Of a stretch of DNA of 64,000 nt, positions 6,215-19,906 are shown piece by piece. A program made the position numbers and the translations under genes. Positions within the stretch are counted from its first letter, which is position 1. Each line of letters opens with the position of its first letter. A model generated the notes under the pieces. It saw only the letters and a program-made list of their open reading frames with translations, did no database searches and was not told where the DNA came from. This stretch comes from Candidatus Eiseniibacteriota bacterium (lineage in GTDB: Bacteria > Eisenbacteria > RBG-16-71-46). The stretch is taken from contig OY970178.1 in assembly GCA_963707915.1 (NCBI GenBank), positions 2,848,001 to 2,912,000 of the forward strand, read 5' to 3'.

Positions 6215-6270
6215 CCCGGGCGGTCCGCCGTTCGCGCGCGCGGTACGCTCCGGCGCACCGTCCCCGGAGC

Positions 6271-6300
6271 CGGACGGCCACCCCGAAGGGCGGCCGTCCG
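6271..6300. terminator. GC-rich hairpin between convergent genes
   Basis: CGGACGGCC-A-CCC-CGAA-GGG-C-GGCCGTCCG stem-loop. Confidence 0.55.
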
Positions 6301-6325
6301 ACCGTCAGGACCGGGCGCGATCCCG

Positions 6326-7855
6326 TCAACGAACCAGCACGACACGGGCGCGCAGGTCGAGCCCTTCCCCATGCAGCCGGGCGAAGTACACGCCCGCACG
6401 CAGCGACTGGCCGCCCTGGTCCACGCCCTGCCAGTTCCACTCGCCATTCGTTCCGTCCAGGCGCGTCGCCCAGCGCCGCGCACCCGCAGCGTCGAAGATC
6501 TCGAGGTCGAGCGGGGCCGCGGTCGGCCTCCACGAGAAGCGCACCGTTCCCCGGGCGGGCTGCGGTCGCACGGTCAGTGCCAACCGCGGCGGCCGCGGCG
6601 GATCCACGACCCCGATGACCGGGTTCGCGATCCCGAGAGTCAGCGCGAGCGGGACCCCCTCCGGCGGCACCAGGGGGTTCCCGAGCAGGTCGAACAGCGG
6701 CAAGGGGGAATAGAGCCACACCGTGGTCAACTCGCCCGCCATGTTGGCGGCTTCCATGCCGGCCAGGAAGGGAGAGCCGATGGTGTTCTCGATCCCGTGC
6801 GCCCACGGCGGGGGGATCACGAGGTACGCCTGGATCATGCCCAGGTAGCCGGGCACGTTCGCCGGCATGTAGGCGGCCTCCGCCAGGTACCCGTCGAGCA
6901 GCGAGTCCCCGGTGACGGTGTCCACGATCTGCACGTAGGTGTCGGCGAGGTGGACCGTGCCGTTCTCCTGCGCTCCGATGAGCAGGAAGTGCTGGACGTG
7001 GACCGCCCCGCGTCCGACGATCGGGTCCGTCGGGAACTGGGCCTCGTTGATCAGCCCCGGACCGACGACCACCAGGCTGCCGACCGCCTCGTCGAAGAAG
7101 CCCTGGCTTCCGCCGAGCGCCGCGCAGTTCGACTTCGAGCCGTCGGGCACCAGCGGATCCTGGCCCGCCGGCGGAGCCACGCAGTGCTCCGCGATGGCCT
7201 GCGTGATGCCCTGAGCGGTGTTGACCGTCTCGCTGGTGCCGTGGTCGGTGAGGCCGTCATAGGTCGAGTTGAGGACGTTCATCTGCCGGAAGATGGCGTC
7301 CATGGCCGCCTGCATCCGCCGGTCCCGCTCGGCCTGCGCCTGCGCCAGGGCGTCGGCCGCCCGCTCCGCGTTGGTGGCCCCCTTGCCCTTGAACTTCATC
7401 CCGGTGAAGCCGCGCATGGCGTCTTCCACCTTCTTCTTCGCGTTCTGGTCGTACTCGTAGTGGTTGAGCGAGTCGTGGCCGCTCTCGTGCGCGCGCAGCG
7501 CGCTGTCGGCGTTCGAAGGCACGCGAATGTCGGTATGCCCGGTCAGCGTGATGTCGCCCAGCGAGGTGACCGTGAACGTGCTGTCGGCGGGGTTCCACGA
7601 GCCGCCGACCGCTCCGCCGCTCCAACCGATCCAGGCCGTGGCGTCGGCGTCCTCCCCGGGGGGCAGGTCCGGCGGTGGGTTGTCGGGTGGGAACTCGGTG
7701 ATGTCGGGCGGGCCCCACGGCGTGACGGTGACGCCGGCCGAGGCTGTCGCGGCCGAGACCGTGAGCAGGGCCAGGAAGAGGAGAGACACCCAGGGGGTTG
7801 CGGGGTGTCCGACGCGGGCCGACTGGCGTCGGCCGGGATGTAGCGAGTGGAACAT
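6326..7855 (-). CDS. Secreted protein with DUF922-like HExxH domain and C-terminal FlgD-Ig/T9SS-CTD-like domain
   Basis: Signal peptide; RAHESGH and YDGLTDHG motifs; C-terminus PQPARG...LEIFDAAG...WQGVDQGG...GVYFARL. Confidence 0.6.
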   Translation of the reverse strand: MFHSLHPGRRQSARVGHPATPWVSLLFLALLTVSAATASAGVTVTPWGPPDITEFPPDNPPPDLPPGEDADATAWIGWSGGAVGGSWNPADSTFTVTSLGDITLTGHTDIRVPSNADSALRAHESGHDSLNHYEYDQNAKKKVEDAMRGFTGMKFKGKGATNAERAADALAQAQAERDRRMQAAMDAIFRQMNVLNSTYDGLTDHGTSETVNTAQGITQAIAEHCVAPPAGQDPLVPDGSKSNCAALGGSQGFFDEAVGSLVVVGPGLINEAQFPTDPIVGRGAVHVQHFLLIGAQENGTVHLADTYVQIVDTVTGDSLLDGYLAEAAYMPANVPGYLGMIQAYLVIPPPWAHGIENTIGSPFLAGMEAANMAGELTTVWLYSPLPLFDLLGNPLVPPEGVPLALTLGIANPVIGVVDPPRPPRLALTVRPQPARGTVRFSWRPTAAPLDLEIFDAAGARRWATRLDGTNGEWNWQGVDQGGQSLRAGVYFARLHGEGLDLRARVVLVR

Positions 7856-8124
7856 GCGGCACCTCCCGGTTGAAGGGGCTCGGGGGAGGTCGCGGCCGCG
7901 GCAGGCCCGGCGGCCCGGGGCGGGGCGCGTCCTTGCGGCGAGTCTATCTCCCGGGCGGGGTGCCGGGCCACAGGATTCGTCACGCGGCGGATCGCGCCGG
8001 GAGGCGGGCCAGGGCCGGCTCTTCGCGTGCCGGGCCGCGTGCCGGGCGGGCGGGGCGAACTGACGAACGCCCAGGGCGATGCGGGGCGGGGGACACGATC
8101 CCCGGGCGCGGCCAGGACCTTCGA

Positions 8125-9357
8125 TCAGGCGGGCCGGTCCCCGGAAGACGTCCTGGCCACCCGCCGGTACACCGCCTCGAGCCGCGACACCACGGCCTCG
8201 CGCCCGTAGCGCTCCAGCGTCTGGCGGCGGATCCGCTCCGCGTCGTAGCGGTGCGCCTCGCCGAGCATCGAGCGCAGTGCGGCGGCGATCGCCTCGACGT
8301 CGCCGACTTCGACCAGCACGCCGGTCTCCGGCGTGACGATGGTCTCGGGCCCGCCGCAGCGGGTGGCGATGACGGGCTTGCCCGAGGCCCCGGCCTCGAC
8401 GAACACGATGCCGAAGGATTCGTGCCGGCTGGTGAGGACGAAGCAGTCGCAGCGCGCGAACTCCTCGCGGGCCCGCTCGCGCGGCAACTGGCCGAGCCAG
8501 GTGACGCAGGAGTCCAGGCGCAGTTCACCGGCCTCGCGCCGGTGCCGCCCGAGCAGCGGGCCGGCGCCGGCGATGCGGAACCGCACGCGCGGGCGGTCGC
8601 GCGCGGGCAGGTCGCCGATGAAGCGCGCCGCGCCGCGCAGCAGGTCGCTCACGCCCTTGAGCGGGTCCATGGCGCAGAGCGTGAAGAAGGTGAAGTGCGC
8701 GGGGTCGCCGGCCGGCTCGTTGCGGTAGAGCCGCTCGTCCACCAGGTTCGGGATCAGCTCGGGCTCGGGCAGGCCGAAGTCCGCGATGGTCCGGGCCAGT
8801 GCCGGTCCCACGGCGACGCGCGCGGCGGCACGCTCGAGCGGCTCGCGCAGGATGGGTTTGAGCCGGCCGTCGCCCCGCGCGTAGACCGGGAGCGGGAAGG
8901 GCCCCATGTGCTCGGTCACGACGTAGGGGATGCCGGTCTCCGCGCCCAGCTTCATGGCGATCCAGCCGGCGGGGTAGGAGACGTGCGCGTGCAGGACGTC
9001 CACCGGGCCGAAGCGCCGGACGGCGCGCCCGAGGTTGAGCCGGGCGGCGTCCAGCAGGGCCGCCCGGTTGCCGCCGAACCACCGCTCGGGCCACCACAAC
9101 GACGGGGTCATGAACTCGACCAGGTTGGGCGCCAGTTCACGCTCGCCCGCGCGCAGCGCCAACGCGTCGAGCAGGCAGCGCGGCGACTTGAGCAGGTGGG
9201 CGGTCGAGACGAACCCCTCGCCCTGGCCCCACAGGCACAGGCCCACGTTCCAGTCCGGCCGGGTCGCGGCGATGGCCCCGGCCTGCTCGACCAGGAAGCT
9301 GCCCTCCCAGGGATAGCAGCGGTGCGGGTACCAGGACGGGATGATGAAGAGGTTCAC
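8125..9357 (-). CDS. Glycosyltransferase family 4
   Basis: IIPSWYP, LHAHVSYPAG, VVTEH and ESFGIVFVEAGASGKPVIATRCGG motifs; GTG start overlaps the NUDIX stop. Confidence 0.88.
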   Translation of the reverse strand: MNLFIIPSWYPHRCYPWEGSFLVEQAGAIAATRPDWNVGLCLWGQGEGFVSTAHLLKSPRCLLDALALRAGERELAPNLVEFMTPSLWWPERWFGGNRAALLDAARLNLGRAVRRFGPVDVLHAHVSYPAGWIAMKLGAETGIPYVVTEHMGPFPLPVYARGDGRLKPILREPLERAAARVAVGPALARTIADFGLPEPELIPNLVDERLYRNEPAGDPAHFTFFTLCAMDPLKGVSDLLRGAARFIGDLPARDRPRVRFRIAGAGPLLGRHRREAGELRLDSCVTWLGQLPRERAREEFARCDCFVLTSRHESFGIVFVEAGASGKPVIATRCGGPETIVTPETGVLVEVGDVEAIAAALRSMLGEAHRYDAERIRRQTLERYGREAVVSRLEAVYRRVARTSSGDRPA

Positions 9358-10004: not shown

Positions 10005-10034
10005 TTGACCAAGGCCTGACGCATTGGCTAGATT
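10005..10034 (+). promoter_or_regulatory. Putative sigma70 promoter of the atp operon
   Basis: TTGACC (10005-10010), 18 nt spacer, TAGATT (10029-10034), upstream of the first atp gene. Confidence 0.45.
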
Positions 10035-10112
10035 GCCGTGTCCGGTCGGGTGCCCGTCGGTTCGACGGCCATCGCCGCGATCAGCGAGAGGGATCTCACC
10101 GGGGTCGGTTCG

Positions 10113-10370
10113 ATGGCCAAACCGCCGGAAGAGGACGCGTACGCCGCACTTCGCTCCTCCGGCCTATTGCTTGCCATACCCACCCTGCTGATCGTCTCCC
10201 CGCTCGCCGGATTCTTCCTCGGTGCCTGGCTGGACCGCTGGCTTCACACGGGTCCGTGGTTCGCAATCGTGGGCCTGGCGCTGGGTTTCGTGGCTGCCGG
10301 CCGCGAGACGTGGTTGATCTATCGCCGTACGCTCGAGGCCGACGAGCGCCAGAAGAAGAAGGAGAAGTGA
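10113..10370 (+). CDS. AtpZ/AtpI-family ATP synthase accessory protein
   Basis: Two TM helices with GFFLGAWLDRWLHTGPW; first gene of the atp operon. Confidence 0.85.
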   Translation: MAKPPEEDAYAALRSSGLLLAIPTLLIVSPLAGFFLGAWLDRWLHTGPWFAIVGLALGFVAAGRETWLIYRRTLEADERQKKKEK

Positions 10371-10397: not shown

Positions 10398-11763
10398 ATG
10401 GGCCTCGAATTCCTCGCACGCGTCCGCAGCACCACCCTGTGGCTGGCCACCATCGCCGCCCTGATGGTGGCGAACTACGCCGGCTGGCGCACGGGCCTCG
10501 GCGTGGCGGCCGGCGCGGCATGGTCGCTCGCGAACCTCGCCGCACTCGAGCACCTGGTCGTGACCGTGACCGGCGCCGAGCGCCGGACCGCGCTCTCCGC
10601 GCGGCGCGCGGCCTGGACCCTCGCCGGCATGCTCGCGCTGCTCGGCGCCGGCTGGCTGCTGCTGAGGGCGCTGCCGCCCGCGGCGCTGGTGGCGGGCTTC
10701 CTCGGGCCCTTCGTGGTCATGGTGTTCAAGGCGGCCGCGGCGCTGCTGCTCGATTCGCCGCTGTGGGCGCGCCTGACCCGCTCGCCGTGGCGCGCGCTCG
10801 CGCTGGTGGCCGGGGTGGCGGTGCTGGCCTGGGCGGTGGCGGCCTCGCTGCCGTCGCTCGGCGGCGCCAGCCCGGCGCACGAGCCGCCGGCGCAGTCGGC
10901 GGCCGCCGCGGCCCCCGCGGCCCCCGCGGCCCACGAGGGCGGCGAAGCCGCGAAGCCGCCGGGCGGCGGCTCCGCCGGGCCGGAGAAGTTCGCCAACGTC
11001 GTCAGCGTGCTGGTGAGAGCCAACCCCGGGGCGGAGTGGTCCCACTGGCTGCACCGCTTCGAGCCGGTGCTGTTCTCCCTGTTCGTCGCGCTCGTGCTCT
11101 CGCTGGTCGCCTTCCTCGCCACGCGCGACAAGCGGATGAATCCCGGGGCCGCTCCAGAACGGGGTCGAGTACGTCGTCGAGCTGCTCTACGATTTCGTGG
11201 TCGGCATCCTCGGGCCGAAGTACGGCCCGCGTTACGTGCCCTACCTGGGCACGCTGTTCATCTACATCCTGGCGATGAACCTGTTCGGGCTCATCCCCTT
11301 CATGGATTCGCCCACCTCGAGCCTCAACGTCACCGTGGGGCTGGCGCTCTGCACCTTCCTGTACGTGCAGTACACCGGCATCCGCGAGCTCGGGGCGCTG
11401 GGCTACGTGGACCACATGGCGGGCAACCCGCGCTCCGCGATCTCGTGGTTCATGGTGCCCATCATGCTGCCCGTGCACCTGATCGGCGAGCTGGCCAAGC
11501 CGGTCTCGCTCTCCTGCCGACTCTTCGGCAACGTGTTCGGCGAGGACATGCTGCTGGTCGCCTTCACCTCGCTCGGCGTGGCGACGCTGTCGTTCGTGCA
11601 CTCGCCGGTCGGCATCCCGTGGCAGTTCCCGTTCCTGGTCCTGGCGTTGCTCACCAGCACCATCCAGGCGCTGGTCTTCACCGTGCTCAGCACGATCTAC
11701 CTGCTGCTCATGCTGCCTCACGAAGAACACGGGCACGAAGAGGCTGCCCAACCCGTCCACTGA
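10398..11763 (+). CDS. atpB: Fused AtpI-like domain plus F0 subunit a; one extra base at the G-run 11145-11148
   Basis: The frame from 10398 runs without a stop through an AtpI-like 4-TM domain into ATRDKRMNPG. After removing one G it continues PLQNGVEY...MNLFGLIP...SPTSSLN...SLSCRLFGNVFGED (essential Arg)...IQALVFTVLSTIY to the stop at 11763. Confidence 0.85.
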
Positions 11764-11779
11764 ATCCGGAGGAACGACC

Positions 11780-12013
11780 ATGCCTTACGCGTCCGCACTC
11801 AGCTTCGCCCTTCCGCTCGGCATCGCCATCGCCGCCATCGGCTCCGGCATCGGCCTCGGCATGATCGGCCAGGGTGCGATGCAGGCGATCGGCCGCCAGC
11901 CGGAGGCCGCCGCGAAGATCCAGCTCGCCATGATCATCATCGCCGGCCTGGCCGAGGCGCTCACGATCTACGCGTTCGTGACCATGTTCGTGCTGTCGGC
12001 CAAGATCGGCTGA
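11780..12013 (+). CDS. atpE: F0 subunit c
   Basis: GSGIGLG glycine motif, RQPE loop, conserved carboxylate in GLAEAL. Confidence 0.97.
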   Translation: MPYASALSFALPLGIAIAAIGSGIGLGMIGQGAMQAIGRQPEAAAKIQLAMIIIAGLAEALTIYAFVTMFVLSAKIG

Positions 12014-12045: not shown

Positions 12046-12618
12046 ATGACGACGTTCCGGACGACGCTGACGATCACGCTGCTCGCCGCCCTGCCGGCCG
12101 CTGCCCGGGCCGCGGAGGGGGGCGGGGCGAAGCCGCTGATCGACCTGCCGCTGGTCCTCACCCAGATCCTCGGCTTCGTGATCCTGCTGTGGGTGCTGCG
12201 CTCGCTCGCCTGGGGGCCGCTGGTCGGCCTGCTCGAGGAGCGCCGCCGGAGGATCGCCGGTGAGTTCGAGGAGGCGGAGCGCCGCAAGGCGGAAGCCGAC
12301 GTCCTCAAGGCCCGCTACGAGCAGGACCTGAAGGGGATCGAGGCCCAGGCCCGCCAGCGCATCCTGGAGGCGGTCGCCGAGGGCCAGCGGGTGGCGGCCG
12401 AGATCAAGACCCATGCCCACGCCGACGCCGCGGCCCGGCTGGTGCGCGCCGACGAGGAGATCGCCCACCAGCAGGAGACGGCCCGCGAGCTGCTCAAGCA
12501 GCAGGTGGCCGTGCTCTCGATCCGCACGGCGGAGAAGATCCTGCGCCAGAAGCTCGACGATCCCGCCCAGCGCCGGCTGGTCGAGAGCTTCATCGAAGAG
12601 GCGGACCTCCGCTCATGA
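12046..12618 (+). CDS. atpF: F0 subunit b with N-terminal signal-peptide-like extension
   Basis: QILGFVILLWVL...WGPL...LEERRRRI followed by a coiled coil; operon position. Confidence 0.92.
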   Translation: MTTFRTTLTITLLAALPAAARAAEGGGAKPLIDLPLVLTQILGFVILLWVLRSLAWGPLVGLLEERRRRIAGEFEEAERRKAEADVLKARYEQDLKGIEAQARQRILEAVAEGQRVAAEIKTHAHADAAARLVRADEEIAHQQETARELLKQQVAVLSIRTAEKILRQKLDDPAQRRLVESFIEEADLRS

Positions 12619-13172
12619 GACAGGACGCCCTCGCCGCCGAGCGCTACGCCCGCGCCCTGTTCATGGTCGCGGAGCGCCGCGGCGAGATCTTCGAGGCGCT
12701 CGAGGACCTCAAGCGCCTGCTCGCGATGGTCCGCGAGGACCCGCGCCTGGGCGGATACCTGCGCTCGCCGCAGGTGGCGCTCGAGCGCAAGCGCACCCTG
12801 CTGCGCTCGGCGCTGGCGGAGCGCGTGCTGCTGCCGGTGGCGAGCTTCATGGACCTGCTGCTGCGCAAGAAGCGGATGGGCCTGTTCCCCGCGACGGTGG
12901 ACGAGTACGAGAAGCAGGTGCGCGCCTGGCAGGGCCTGCAGGAGGCCGAGGCGGTGAGCGCCGTGCCGCTCACCGAGGACGAGGTGAAGCGCCTGCACGC
13001 CCGCCTCGAGAGCAGCACCGGGCTCACCATCGAGCTCAAGACGCGCGTGGATCCGGGCCTGCTCGGCGGCCTCACCGTGCGCATCGGCGATCGCGTCATG
13101 GACCGTTCCGTGAAGGGCCTGCTCCGGTCGCTGCAGGAGCGGCTCTGCGAGGTCAGCCTCCACACCCACTAG
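12615..13172 (+). CDS. atpH: F1 subunit delta
   Basis: AERYARALF and VDPGLLGG...[11 protein letters not shown] motifs. Confidence 0.95.
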
Positions 13173-13212: not shown

Positions 13213-14721
<1,509 letters not shown>

Positions 14722-14724
14722 GCC

Positions 14725-17054
<2,330 letters not shown>

Positions 17055-17059
17055 TGAAC

Positions 17060-17347
17060 ATGGCGGCGGCCCAGTTCGAGCTTTCGGTCCTCACCCCCGA
17101 GCGGGCGGTGTTCGAGGGCAGGGTCGAGTACGTGCAGGTGCCCGGCACCGAGGGCTACCTGGGCGTGCTGGCCGGTCACGCGGCGCTGGTGACCGAGCTG
17201 GCCGCGGGCACGCTGACCGTGCGCAAGCCGGGCGGCGACGAGGTCCGGTGGCAGGTGAGCGGCGGCTTCTTCGACGTCGCCGCGGACCGGGCCACCGTGC
17301 TGGCCGACGCGGTGAGCGCGGACGAGCCGGAGGCGGCGCAGGACTGA
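17060..17347 (+). CDS. atpC: F1 subunit epsilon, short form (beta-sandwich only)
   Basis: LSVLTPER, PGTEGYLGVLAGHA and VSGGF...TVLAD motifs; ends at 95 aa. Confidence 0.93.
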   Translation: MAAAQFELSVLTPERAVFEGRVEYVQVPGTEGYLGVLAGHAALVTELAAGTLTVRKPGGDEVRWQVSGGFFDVAADRATVLADAVSADEPEAAQD

Positions 17348-17387
17348 AGCGCCGGCCGGTCCGCGGCGCCGGGCCTTCGACCGTCCG

Positions 17388-18041
17388 TCAGCTCCCGCCG
17401 AAGGGGAACTCCAGGCCCAGCATCGCGTAGATCGCGCGGTTCTTCACCTCACCGCCGAACGGCAGGTCCGAGATGTCCGTCAGCCCGAACGTGTAGCGGC
17501 CCTCGCCGACCACCCGGAGCCCGTCGAGCCGGACGGCCAAGGCCCCACCCACCGCGAAGCCGAAGTCGGTCGTCTTGACCACGTCCGTGCCCTGCGAGAA
17601 GTCGACCAGGCCGCTGACGCTCAGCTTCTCGCTCGACTTCATCGAGACCACCGGGCCGGCGAGCAGGCGCAGCCCCAGCGGGTCCGGCGTCGGCAGCGAC
17701 AGCCGCAGGAGCAGCGGGATCTCGACGTAGTCCACGTCGAGCGTGCTGGCCACCTCGCCGATGTGGATGGGGCCGATGGAGACGTCGCTGCTGAACAGCT
17801 TGGCCCCCTTGCGGACGAACAGCAGCTCCGGCTGGATGCCGAGCATCGGCGCCACGTCGAACGAGGCGTAGACGCCGCCCACGAACCCGGTGCGGTTGTC
17901 GGTGTTCAGCGGGTCCGCCTGCACCTGCGACAGGCTGAGGCCACCCTTCACGCCGAGAGCCATGCCGGCCTGCGCTGACGTCGGGGCGAGCAGGGCAAGC
18001 GCCAGGGCCATGACCGTGATGCCGGGGAGGGAGCGCTTCAT
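17388..18041 (-). CDS. Outer-membrane beta-barrel, porin/PorT-like family
   Basis: Signal peptide MKRSLPG...AQA; GVKGGL, IQPELLFVRKG, DYVEIPLLL and EGRYTFGL motifs; GGAGG-like RBS region. Confidence 0.8.
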   Translation of the reverse strand: MKRSLPGITVMALALALLAPTSAQAGMALGVKGGLSLSQVQADPLNTDNRTGFVGGVYASFDVAPMLGIQPELLFVRKGAKLFSSDVSIGPIHIGEVASTLDVDYVEIPLLLRLSLPTPDPLGLRLLAGPVVSMKSSEKLSVSGLVDFSQGTDVVKTTDFGFAVGGALAVRLDGLRVVGEGRYTFGLTDISDLPFGGEVKNRAIYAMLGLEFPFGGS

Positions 18042-18280
18042 GGAGGACCTCCGTGGGGTGGATCGCGTGACACTGTCCGGGCGGCCATGGTGACTCCGCC
18101 GGGGGGGGCGTTGCGGGGAATCTACCGCATTGGATTGCGTCCGGCGCGATCGGGTGCAGGGACGGATCGCGTTTGCGGAGTCCACGGCCGGGTCCGCTCG
18201 AGAAAGCCCGCACCACCCGCCACCGTGGCTCATCGACAGGGGCAAGCGCCGCGCGCTGTCGACCTTCGCAGAGGAGCACG

Positions 18281-18601
18281 ATGACCATGCGCACCCTCAT
18301 GAAGATCTCCATGCCCGTCGGATCGGGCGCCCCGAACGTCAAGGACGGAACGATCGGGCGCATCCTCGGTGAGACGACGAACCGCCTCCATCCCGAGGCG
18401 GCCTACTTCTACCCCGAGCACGGTCACCGCACCGCCATCATGGTGTTCGACCTGAAGAACCCCTCCGAGCTGCCGATCATCACCGAGCCGTTGTTCACCG
18501 AGCTCAACGCCACGGTGGAGATGTACCCGGTGATGAACGCCGATGACCTGAAGAAGGGCCTGGGGGCCTACATGGACCAGAACGCGGCGTTGCATCGCTG
18601 A
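18281..18601 (+). CDS. Small conserved hypothetical protein (DUF3303/GYD-like)
   Basis: GAGGAG RBS; PEAAYF..EHGHRTA.MVFD...EPLF..LNA.VE..PVM..DDL pattern. Confidence 0.65.
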   Translation: MTMRTLMKISMPVGSGAPNVKDGTIGRILGETTNRLHPEAAYFYPEHGHRTAIMVFDLKNPSELPIITEPLFTELNATVEMYPVMNADDLKKGLGAYMDQNAALHR

Positions 18602-18693
18602 GCGCCCGCCGCCCGCGTCACTGGAGCGCGACGGGCCCGCGGTCCGCCGGGGGACTCCCGGTGGCTTCGAGAGGGTCGAGCGGGGCGATGTCC

Positions 18694-19600
18694 TCAGCGT
18701 CCCGCCCGGCCCTCTTCCAGTTCCTCGAGCGTGCGCGGCCAGTCGTCCTTGAGCAGCCGGGAGAGCGCCCGGTCGGCGAGCAGGCGGCCCCCGGTCTGGC
18801 AACGCGCGCAGTAGTTCGTCTCGTTCTCCGCGTAGACCACCCGCTGCACCGGCGCGCCGCAGTCGGGGCAGGGCTTGCGCCAGCGGCCGTGGACGGCCAT
18901 GCCTTCGCGGAACGCGGTCACCTTCTCCGGGAACTCCTCGCCGCTCTCCGCACGCAGCCGCGCGGTCCACTCCGTCCAGCACCGCCCGGGTCGCCGCGAA
19001 CAGCCGCTCGCCCTCCGCCTCGTCGAGCTGTGACGTGCGGCGCGAGCGGCGAGAGGCGCGCGCGGTGGAGGATCTCGTCCGAGTAGGCGTTGCCGATGCC
19101 GCTGAAGAGCCGCGGGTCGGTGAGCGCGCGCTTGAGCGTGTGGTCCTCGCGCAGGAGCGCGGCGCGGAACGCCGGCGAGGTCCGCGCTCCAGCACCTCGA
19201 GCCCGCCGGGGTCGAGCGCCTGCAGCGCCGCGGCCCCGGCGACCAGGTGCAGGGCGGCGCGCTGGCGGGTGCTGGCCTCGGTGAGGAGCAGCGTGCCGGT
19301 CGAGAAGTCGAGCGCGGCGAGCCCGATGCGGCCCGGGAGCTTCGCGCCCGCCTCCCGCCAGCGCAGGCGCCCCGCGATCATCAGGTGCAGCACCAGCGCG
19401 AGCTCGCCCTCGAGCGCGAAGACGATGCGCTTGCCCATGCGGCGCACGCCGGTGACGCGGCAGCCCTGCGCCGACTCGAGCGGCGGCACGGCGGTGCGCA
19501 GCAGGTTCGGGCTGCGCACGCGGGCGCCGGCGAAGGTCGCGCCCGCGAGGCGGCGCTCGAGGTGCTCCACGGTGACCGTGATGTCGGGCAGTTCGGGCAC
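18694..19600 (-). CDS. Fpg/Nei-family DNA glycosylase/AP lyase, interrupted by several frameshifts (assembly error or pseudogene)
   Basis: N-terminal PELPD, GKR, HLMIAG; H2[15 protein letters not shown]4 zinc finger CPDC...CARCQ. Pieces lie in three frames with breaks near 19170-19186, 19040 and 18976. Confidence 0.85.
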
Positions 19601-19705
19601 GACCGGAGGATAGCGCAGGCCTGCGCGCCGCCGTAGTTCGTCGTATGATGGCCGCCAGCCGAGCGGGCCGTCCGGCCCGCCTCGCCTTCCACTCGCGGGG
19701 ACCGC

Positions 19706-19906
19706 ATGCGAGCCGTGCCCGAGCCGCCCGAGGAAACCATCGTCGCCCTGGCCCGTGCGCGCGGGCTGGCGCTCGACGCGGCGCGCGCCGCGGAACTGCG
19801 GGCGCCGCTCGAGAGCCTGCTCGGCCGCCTCGCGCGCATCGGCGCGGCGCTGCCGCGCGCCGCCGAGCCGCCGCCGTCCGGCCTGCCCGGGGACCCCCTG
19901 CCGTGA
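19706..19906 (+). CDS. Small helical protein, GatC/AtzG (DUF4089)-like putative amidase partner
   Basis: 66 aa, [10 protein letters not shown]...EP pattern; its stop overlaps the amidase GTG (GTGA). Confidence 0.5.

Follow-up and report, generated by a model that had tools for sequence, protein, structure and literature searches.

The function of AtpI is poorly defined, the protein being dispensable in some bacteria and required for assembly of the c-ring of the ATP synthase in others. Here, a gene of a Candidatus Eiseniibacteriota bacterium is described in which an AtpI-like domain is joined in one reading frame to subunit a of the ATP synthase, the product of atpB. The gene lies at positions 10398-11763 of a 64,000-nucleotide stretch of DNA (hereafter the window; positions 2,848,001 to 2,912,000 of contig OY970178.1, assembly GCA_963707915.1), which is part of a 3.6 Mb genome assembled as a single contig (G000). 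All coordinates are those of the window, and the features lie on its forward strand unless stated otherwise. The closest described system is stand-alone AtpI (also UncI or Atp1; PF03899), with which the N-terminal part of the fused protein shares a length of about 120 amino acids, four predicted membrane helices, and an operon site between a PF09527 gene and the gene for subunit a. Unlike in the stand-alone form, no stop codon follows the domain here, the frame continues into subunit a, and the domain in the window is too divergent to be recognized by PF03899. Members of the AtpI family have been reported to be helpers in c-ring assembly (PMC8904574; PMC9806626). The gene order I-sI-a reported by Koumandou and Kossida (PMC4154653) is the same as the order PF09527 / PF03899-like / a found here, and the passages of that paper that treat this order are silent on any fusion to subunit a. 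A second point of comparison is the plant protein CGL160, in which, as the cited source presents it (PMC9806626), an AtpI-type domain is also joined in one chain to another function related to the ATP synthase. In CGL160 the additional part is soluble, N-terminal, and recruits CF1, whereas here a whole subunit is found at the C-terminus.

A search of the literature found no paper on a fusion of AtpI to subunit a, nor on the ATP synthase of Eisenbacteria. The component families (AtpI, subunit a, and a Sec-type signal) are known; what is new is the one-gene arrangement, the internal export signal, and the His/acid-rich periplasmic tail. The explanation favored here, to which a probability of roughly 0.5 is given as a whole, is that the gene encodes a fused precursor of about 454 amino acids, that a fifth hydrophobic helix (H5) between the two parts is a former export signal after which signal peptidase would cut, and that the single frame break within the gene is an artefact.

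One reading frame from an AtpI-like domain into subunit a

The list of open reading frames (ORFs) of the window includes a single frame that opens with ATG at 10398 and reaches 11864. Its first 250 codons (10398-11147) encode, in order, four hydrophobic helices, a basic loop, H5, a linker rich in Ala, Pro, Gly, Glu, and His, and the start of subunit a. The AtpI-like domain (10398-10754; amino acids 1-119) begins with the conserved start MGLEF, and hydropathy analysis places its four transmembrane helices at amino acids 11-30, 33-56, 71-90, and 94-119. There follows a basic, predicted cytoplasmic loop (DSPLWARLTRSPWR; 10755-10793) with three Arg, which would form the n-region of an internal signal-like segment, and then H5 (ALALVAGVAVLAWAVAASLP; 10794-10853), the position of which matches that of the N-terminal helix of unfused subunit a. 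The low-complexity linker (10854-10976) is predicted to be periplasmic and disordered, on the basis of its composition and of the low per-residue confidence (predicted local distance difference test; pLDDT) of the corresponding region in a model of an orthologue (G005). Beyond the linker, the N-terminal part of subunit a (GPEKFANV...FEPVLFSLFVALVLSLVAFLATRDKRMNPG) continues in the first frame (10977-11141), with the GPEKFANV motif, helix 1, and ATRDKRMN.

The sole break in this coding sequence is one extra base at 11139-11144 (AATCCC), which causes a +1 shift inside subunit a, after helix 1 and downstream of the junction; relatives, and contigs from two public sequencing runs discussed below, have one base fewer at this site. 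A meaningful translation is resumed in the +1 frame from about 11140 (IPGPLQNGVEYVVELLYDF...), so that the remainder of subunit a (IPGPLQNGVEY...; 11140-11763) extends to a stop at 11761-11763. With the extra base discounted, the predicted product has 454 amino acids. An earlier reading of the window, made from its letters alone (the sequence-only reading), had proposed that one frame joins an AtpI-like domain, an extra helix, a linker, and subunit a between 10398 and 11763, and that the one break lies inside subunit a and does not create the fusion. The frame from 10398 to 11864 is open throughout the junction, the break is downstream of it, and the coordinates proved correct.

The subunit a part matches PF00119 (169.5 bits, E = 1.3e-49; cut-off 33.9) and TIGR01131 (116.1 bits; cut-off 102.6). 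The essential Arg of the penultimate helix (RLFGN) is present, as SLSCRLFGNVFGED in the translation of 11197-11763 (SCRLFGN), and R366 is invariant across sets of 27 and of 146 sequences. Solved chains of subunit a, for example spinach chloroplast 6vm4_a, Chloroflexus 9ito_T, and E. coli 6oqr_a, could be superposed on the C-terminal half of the G005 model, with target-normalized TM-scores of 0.57-0.75 and E-values down to 8.6e-8. In contrast to the protein described here, these matched chains are without an AtpI domain at the N-terminus, have no additional helix, and carry no long tail of low complexity.

Two features of composition were also observed. Positions 11700-11760 of the window encode a His-rich C-terminal tail on subunit a (LPHEEHGHEEAAQPVH), and the linkers of many relatives (e.g., L028, L031, L052, and L055) contain repeated units of His, Asp, Glu, and Ala (EHAAEGEHAAAGEH, DAHGTDAHATDAH). 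Judged by their residues, the tail and the linker repeats may bind metal or buffer protons.

Conservation and spread of the fusion

When amino acids 1-250 were used as a query, matches were obtained in 39 of 41 genomes of relatives. The loci of 31 relatives (L002-L032) were retrieved, of which 27 hold both halves complete, and each of these 27 encodes a fused single frame without a stop (ORFs of 440-483 amino acids, with a conserved MG(L/F)EF start). The suggestion that an AtpB of about 450 amino acids should be looked for in related genomes was thereby borne out. As expected of a fusion of AtpI to subunit a, there is no stop between the two parts, and no conserved start that is independent of the first, in G000 or in any of the 27 loci. 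The frame of subunit a is uninterrupted in all 27 relatives read, unlike in the window, and among the loci compared G000 is the only one in which the N-terminal and C-terminal halves are in different frames. The frame across the junction is kept, with conservation at the protein level, in the 27 complete loci including that of G039, a genome of low guanine and cytosine (GC) content, which indicates that the open junction is not a matter of chance openness of a GC-rich frame. A stop missed between 10700 and 11000 was sought in public sequencing runs, the four best of which gave short, dissimilar pieces (likeness cut 88%), and the relatives were used instead.

A profile built from the 27 fused proteins matched 193 of 201 genomes of the phylum. 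In at least 91 of the 201, the match was full-length and free of stops (from model position <=12 to >=444), a count that is a lower bound and that includes one unpublished genome (G026), which enters into no other claim made here. These comprise 66 genomes of the window's own family, 16 of family f10, 8 of f3, and 1 of f13. The other matches listed for the window's family mostly begin at or near a contig end, and none of them has a stop between the domains. Six further genomes were read as fused (G038, G088, G074, G108, G131, and G152), and two (G040 and G028) were left unclassed, as their loci are cut by contig ends. Among public gene calls, at least 120 proteins of 418-540 amino acids (query coverage 84-100%) are annotated as subunit a with PF00119 only; their names conceal an AtpI domain. 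Of those public long proteins that carry an organism name, two are labelled Candidatus Eisenbacteria and one Candidatus Limnocylindrales. Taken together, it is close to certain that the fusion is real and conserved, and fusion of atpI and atpB is the state in this bacterium and in most of its relatives.

Identity of the N-terminal domain

The domain in the window occupies the place of AtpI in an operon with the order PF09527 gene, AtpI-like domain, a, c, b, delta, alpha, gamma, and beta. Its orthologues align end to end and are 33-84% identical, and two of them match PF03899 at or above the cut-off of 25.1 bits: the separate ORF of the split genome G025 (31.7 bits, positions 4-98 of 99) and the N-terminus of the fused protein of G012 (25.1 bits, positions 1-93). 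In a genome search with PF03899 at E<=0.1, 11 of the 21 matches listed fell on the AtpI-like domain at the atp locus, the other 10 being weak and located elsewhere; two of the 27 fused proteins match PF03899 at E<=1, the better at 5.1e-4. The nearest language-model clusters of the window's domain consist of PF03899 proteins of about 130 amino acids (score 0.87, with 195-198 of 256 features shared), a similarity that is to be taken as a lead only. An AlphaFold2 model of amino acids 1-128 (pLDDT 92; predicted TM-score, pTM, 0.79) has four long helices, at residues 3-28, 30-58, 65-91, and 94-118.

Several searches weigh against this identity. PF03899 gave no match at E<=1 on window positions 10398-11147 or 10398-10790, G000 was without a PF03899 match at E<=0.1 in the genome search, and NCBIfam models gave no match on the N-terminal part of the window's protein. 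A comparison of a profile of 27 domains with a single divergent sequence, E. coli AtpI, by hhalign gave a probability of 0.09% and an E-value of 0.6. The model of the N-terminal domain returned no match at E<=0.001 with Foldseek, and with VIA-align the best Z was 8.3, to generic helical hairpins, which is inside the noise stated for helical models. The sequence-only reading had called the domain AtpI-like and had suggested a scan for both families: PF00119 (ATP-synt_A) is found on the subunit a part and PF03899 is not found on the N-terminal domain of the window, so that the assignment is backed by operon position, by PF03899 matches on two orthologues, and by the nearest clusters, and lacks a match of PF03899 to the window's own domain. 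The N-terminal domain is therefore predicted to be a divergent member of the AtpI family by transitive homology and context, not by direct match.

Membrane topology of the fused chain

Clusters of Arg are found at the N-terminus, between helices 2 and 3 (four Arg), and after helix 4 (three Arg); the tail following H5 is acidic, and an RDKR stretch comes after helix 1 of subunit a. Read with the positive-inside rule, the placement of Arg predicts a cytoplasmic N-terminus, four helices, and a return to the cytoplasm, after which H5 would run outward, the linker would be periplasmic, and the N-terminus of subunit a would lie outside. The N-terminus of E. coli subunit a is also on the outside. A covalent join of AtpI and subunit a requires an odd number of extra helices, and H5 supplies such a helix. 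In the model of the G005 orthologue (445 amino acids, from an alignment of 146 sequences; mean pLDDT 79.7, pTM 0.52), H5 is helical at residues 130-150, and residues 154-187 have pLDDT values below 50. The low pTM means that the relative placement of the two domains is not predicted by this model. The length and sequence of the linker vary among relatives.

Origin of the fifth helix and switching between fused and split forms

In ten genomes (G047, G095, G092, G099, G059, G065, G102, G140, G070, and G049) atpI and atpB are split. The atpB of these genomes opens with a basic n-region and a hydrophobic core, after which come small residues (e.g., MRIGSKLPPSLGSLALLLTAIFPGSAWA/SSEE and ...LALSLGFAGGAFA/SDDH), and this signal-like helix is followed by a tail rich in His, Asp, Glu, and Ala and then by a PELPN motif. 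The unfused subunit a of sister lineages thus shares with the fused protein an H5-like helix, a low-complexity tail, a PELPN or GPxKFPN motif, and the subunit a core. It differs in that a stop or a frame change follows atpI, and hence the helix is N-terminal there and internal here. In the fused protein of the window, H5 likewise has a basic n-region, with three Arg in amino acids 120-132 followed by about 20 uncharged residues. Because the subunit a of split lineages begins with its own signal-like helix and His/acid-rich tail, H5 is very likely to be derived from the export signal of subunit a. Loss of a stop codon would have joined atpI to atpB, and H5 and the tail behind it would be the former export signal and N-terminal tail of subunit a. 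Subunit a in this phylum would be distinguished by two features, a helix that resembles a signal and a long periplasmic tail rich in His and acidic residues.

In G047 and G095, one in-frame TGA parts atpI from atpB, and in the recently fused G074 and G108 the Met of the old atpB initiator is retained. A further arrangement occurs in G025, G027, and G029 (L013-L015), members of one sister family, where a separate four-helix ORF (open frames of 146-163 amino acids) ends in a stop. The start of the atpB that follows, apparently a TTG (LILPLLEAAAGE...), lies a short way ahead of the PELPN-type motif, and this atpB has neither H5 nor the linker; three forms of the atpI/atpB junction therefore coexist in the phylum. 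Fused or split was also scored as a label on a phylogeny built from 48 sequences of the subunit a core (quick IQ-TREE). The best tree requires six changes, of which at least two are forced by well-supported branches; for example, fused G108 is sister to split G049 (SH-aLRT 99). The forced changes indicate that the stop between atpI and atpB has been lost or regained more than once. Conservation of the fusion across much of the phylum, together with repeated change of state, argues that AtpI and subunit a work together, and the fused gene is a natural construct for studying the two.

Cleaved precursor or permanent tether

The fused chain would be inserted co-translationally, with H5 serving as an internal signal sequence. 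Signal peptidase I would then cut after H5, freeing AtpI, with H5 kept as its fifth helix, and mature subunit a; the two would be made at a fixed 1:1 ratio and at the same place in the membrane. The chance that the precursor is cut in this way is put at about even. An arrangement of this kind is found in the FbcH cytochrome b-c1 precursor of Bradyrhizobium, a polyprotein with an internal signal behind which signal peptidase cleaves. Processing of the same sort is described for the junction of core and E1 in hepatitis C virus (PMC5402940). On the description given there, and in FbcH, the logic is that proposed here, in that an internal signal exports the downstream part and stays on the upstream protein. 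The parallel is an analogy of mechanism and not a homology: here the two parts would be an assembly factor and an ATP synthase subunit, and the cut is proposed from sequence.

The presence of a signal-like start on unfused subunit a at exactly the place of H5 gives the idea of a polyprotein a concrete basis. Among the split forms, 9 of 10 proteins have [AV]xA behind the core, against 4.8 expected. Other observations weigh against a cut in the fused forms. Under the strict [AV]xA rule, 25 of 35 fused proteins have a site, against 23.6 expected from their Ala-rich composition, and under a loose rule (small residues at -3 and -1) all 35 do, against 33.5 expected. The hydrophobic core has median lengths of 20-23 residues in fused forms and 20.5 in split forms, and a core of about 20 residues suits a permanent membrane anchor as well as it does a signal peptide. 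As a means of telling a cleaved signal from an anchor, the -3/-1 rule and core length were set aside as uninformative for the fused proteins. In addition, the fusion is unreversed in 66 of 66 complete cases of the window's family, among the matches listed, which fits a tether that is under selection.

A permanent tether is accordingly a substantial alternative, if one with somewhat less than an even chance. H5 would then be an uncleaved transmembrane helix, and together with the flexible periplasmic linker (40-80 residues) it would keep AtpI covalently attached to subunit a. AtpI would serve there either as an additional domain on the stator side or as a chaperone kept beside the interface of a and the c-ring. 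Besides the absence of small residues at -3/-1 above the level set by composition, the sufficient length of the core, and the persistence of the fusion in the window's family, the tether agrees with a linker that is disordered and variable in length, as would be expected of one, and with a topology that needs no cut, the C-terminus of AtpI and the start of H5 both being cytoplasmic. It fits less well with the equivalence in position between H5 and the signal-like N-termini of unfused subunit a, with their excess of [AV]xA sites. AtpI is usually needed in sub-stoichiometric amounts, which also counts against a permanent tether. Moreover, the two states have been exchanged at least twice without other visible change, which is harder to square with a tether that matters; this repeated switching suggests that fused and split genes yield the same mature products, as that would explain it most easily.

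A third possibility, considered very improbable, is that two products are made, with subunit a arising mostly from an internal start in or before H5 and the read-through fusion being a minor by-product. A GTG inside H5 in most relatives, and the old initiator Met kept in G074 and G108, are what such an arrangement might be expected to leave. Against it, the loop that leads into H5 has no conserved in-frame start: ATG, GTG, and TTG are all absent ahead of the hydrophobic core in G000 and its genus, and over 30 codons in G016. A start within the core would make a defective signal, and in the absence of a stop after the AtpI domain, every ribosome that initiates at 10398 makes the fusion.

Cleavage of the fused precursor, should it occur, would carry implications for both partners. 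It is conceivable, although on balance rather doubtful, that the gene encodes a natural membrane polyprotein in which an inherited internal signal is cut by signal peptidase I, such that an assembly factor and a channel subunit are delivered 1:1 to the same spot in the membrane. If so, by Rosetta-stone logic, the role of AtpI would extend beyond the formation of the c-ring itself, to inserting subunit a or to joining a to the c-ring. The proton entry half-channel would then have the His/acid-rich N-terminal tail of mature subunit a at its mouth, and the tail could collect protons or metal ions there.

Frame breaks in atpB and atpD

The extra base in atpB is one of two genuine frame changes in the window across about 28 kb of synteny with G004, a genome of the same genus; these are at 11140-11147 in atpB and at about 16838 in atpD. 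In atpB, relatives read ...VPGPLQNGVEY... in one frame across the site of the break, and in the window the subunit a frame after the break is intact and 96% identical to G004. In atpD (subunit beta; 15630-17037), comparison with G004 places a one-base insertion near 16836-16838 (window CAGTATCCTC versus CAGT-TCCTC in G004; 16830-16845). The annotated atpD frame ends in nonsense, and the +1 frame has a canonical beta C-terminus with a stop at 17035-17037. When contigs of four public runs were compared with the window, two of them, from two runs of two studies, had one base fewer at 11141/11142: that from run X2 spans 173 nucleotides with no other difference, and that from run X1 spans 171 nucleotides with three other differences.

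The insertion at 11139-11144 most likely stems from assembly or consensus calling and not from biology, and the frameshift is, with high probability, an artefact. Each insertion resembles a variable position that has been entered as two bases (AAC-CC or AAT-CC becoming AATCCC in atpB; TAC or TTC becoming TATC in atpD), which would fit consensus calling on a mixed population. Three points weigh against an artefact. The contigs of X1 and X2 have a depth of only about 2.9 and come from samples other than the source; the source reads were not found among public runs, the best of which holds 0.32 of the words of the stretch; and the fall of both frame changes within the atp operon, at about (7/28)^2, or about 0.07, is mildly odd for random error.

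That the frameshifts in atpB (11139-11144) and atpD (about 16837) are real, which would call for a decaying operon or for ribosomal frameshifting, is regarded as unlikely. Their clustering in the atp operon, while about 12 neighboring genes in the same synteny are intact, speaks for it, as does the fact that simple lengthening of a long homopolymer accounts for neither insertion. Decay is hard to reconcile with the gene content of G000, in which PF00119 and PF00137 match once each, so that this operon, with the sole genes for subunits a and c, encodes the only rotary ATPase of the genome; the same two counts rule out another atp operon, or an enzyme of the V-type, that would make decay plausible. 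The frames after both breaks are, furthermore, fully open and 81-96% identical to G004, and hence show no further decay. Relatives are in frame at both sites, and hence no recoding signal is conserved; programmed +1 frameshifting was rejected, as the relatives and the near-identical contigs, which lack the extra atpB base, are in frame. It should be noted that the one-base insertions in atpB and atpD of G000 are not to be taken as gene loss.

Other genes of the operon and its flanks

Upstream of the fused gene, a weak match to a sigma-70-like promoter (TTGACC-18-TAGATT, 9 of 12 positions; 10005-10034) was found, with one site against 0.2 expected in shuffled sequences; this is a match to the consensus only. 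It precedes the gene for a small membrane protein of the atpZ type (10038-10370), which matches PF09527 (ATPase_gene1; E = 9.4e-13, 48.5 bits; cut-off 26.6) and the true start of which is probably ATG 10113 (MAKPPEED...). ORFs homologous to this gene are also found upstream of the locus in relatives.

Downstream, the operon continues with atpE for subunit c (11780-12013; PF00137, E = 5.5e-14, the sole such match in the genome), atpF for subunit b (12046-12618; PF00430, E = 1.9e-25), atpH for subunit delta (12615-13172; PF00213, E = 1.4e-42), atpA for subunit alpha (13213-14721; PF00006, PF00306, and PF02874), and atpG for subunit gamma (14725-15585; PF00231, E = 5.7e-92). The atpD gene is followed by a short ORF of 95 amino acids (17060-17347), probably atpC for subunit epsilon, an assignment made by position and by eye only. 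In this epsilon the C-terminal helical hairpin, an inhibitor of ATP hydrolysis in other bacteria, seems to be missing. Two segments of the window, 6217-8149 (about 1.9 kb) and 17351-19743 (about 2.4 kb), are missing from G004, which is otherwise syntenic in this region. The second of these, just downstream of the atp operon, contains an ORF on the minus strand (17388-18245) with a signal-like N-terminus.

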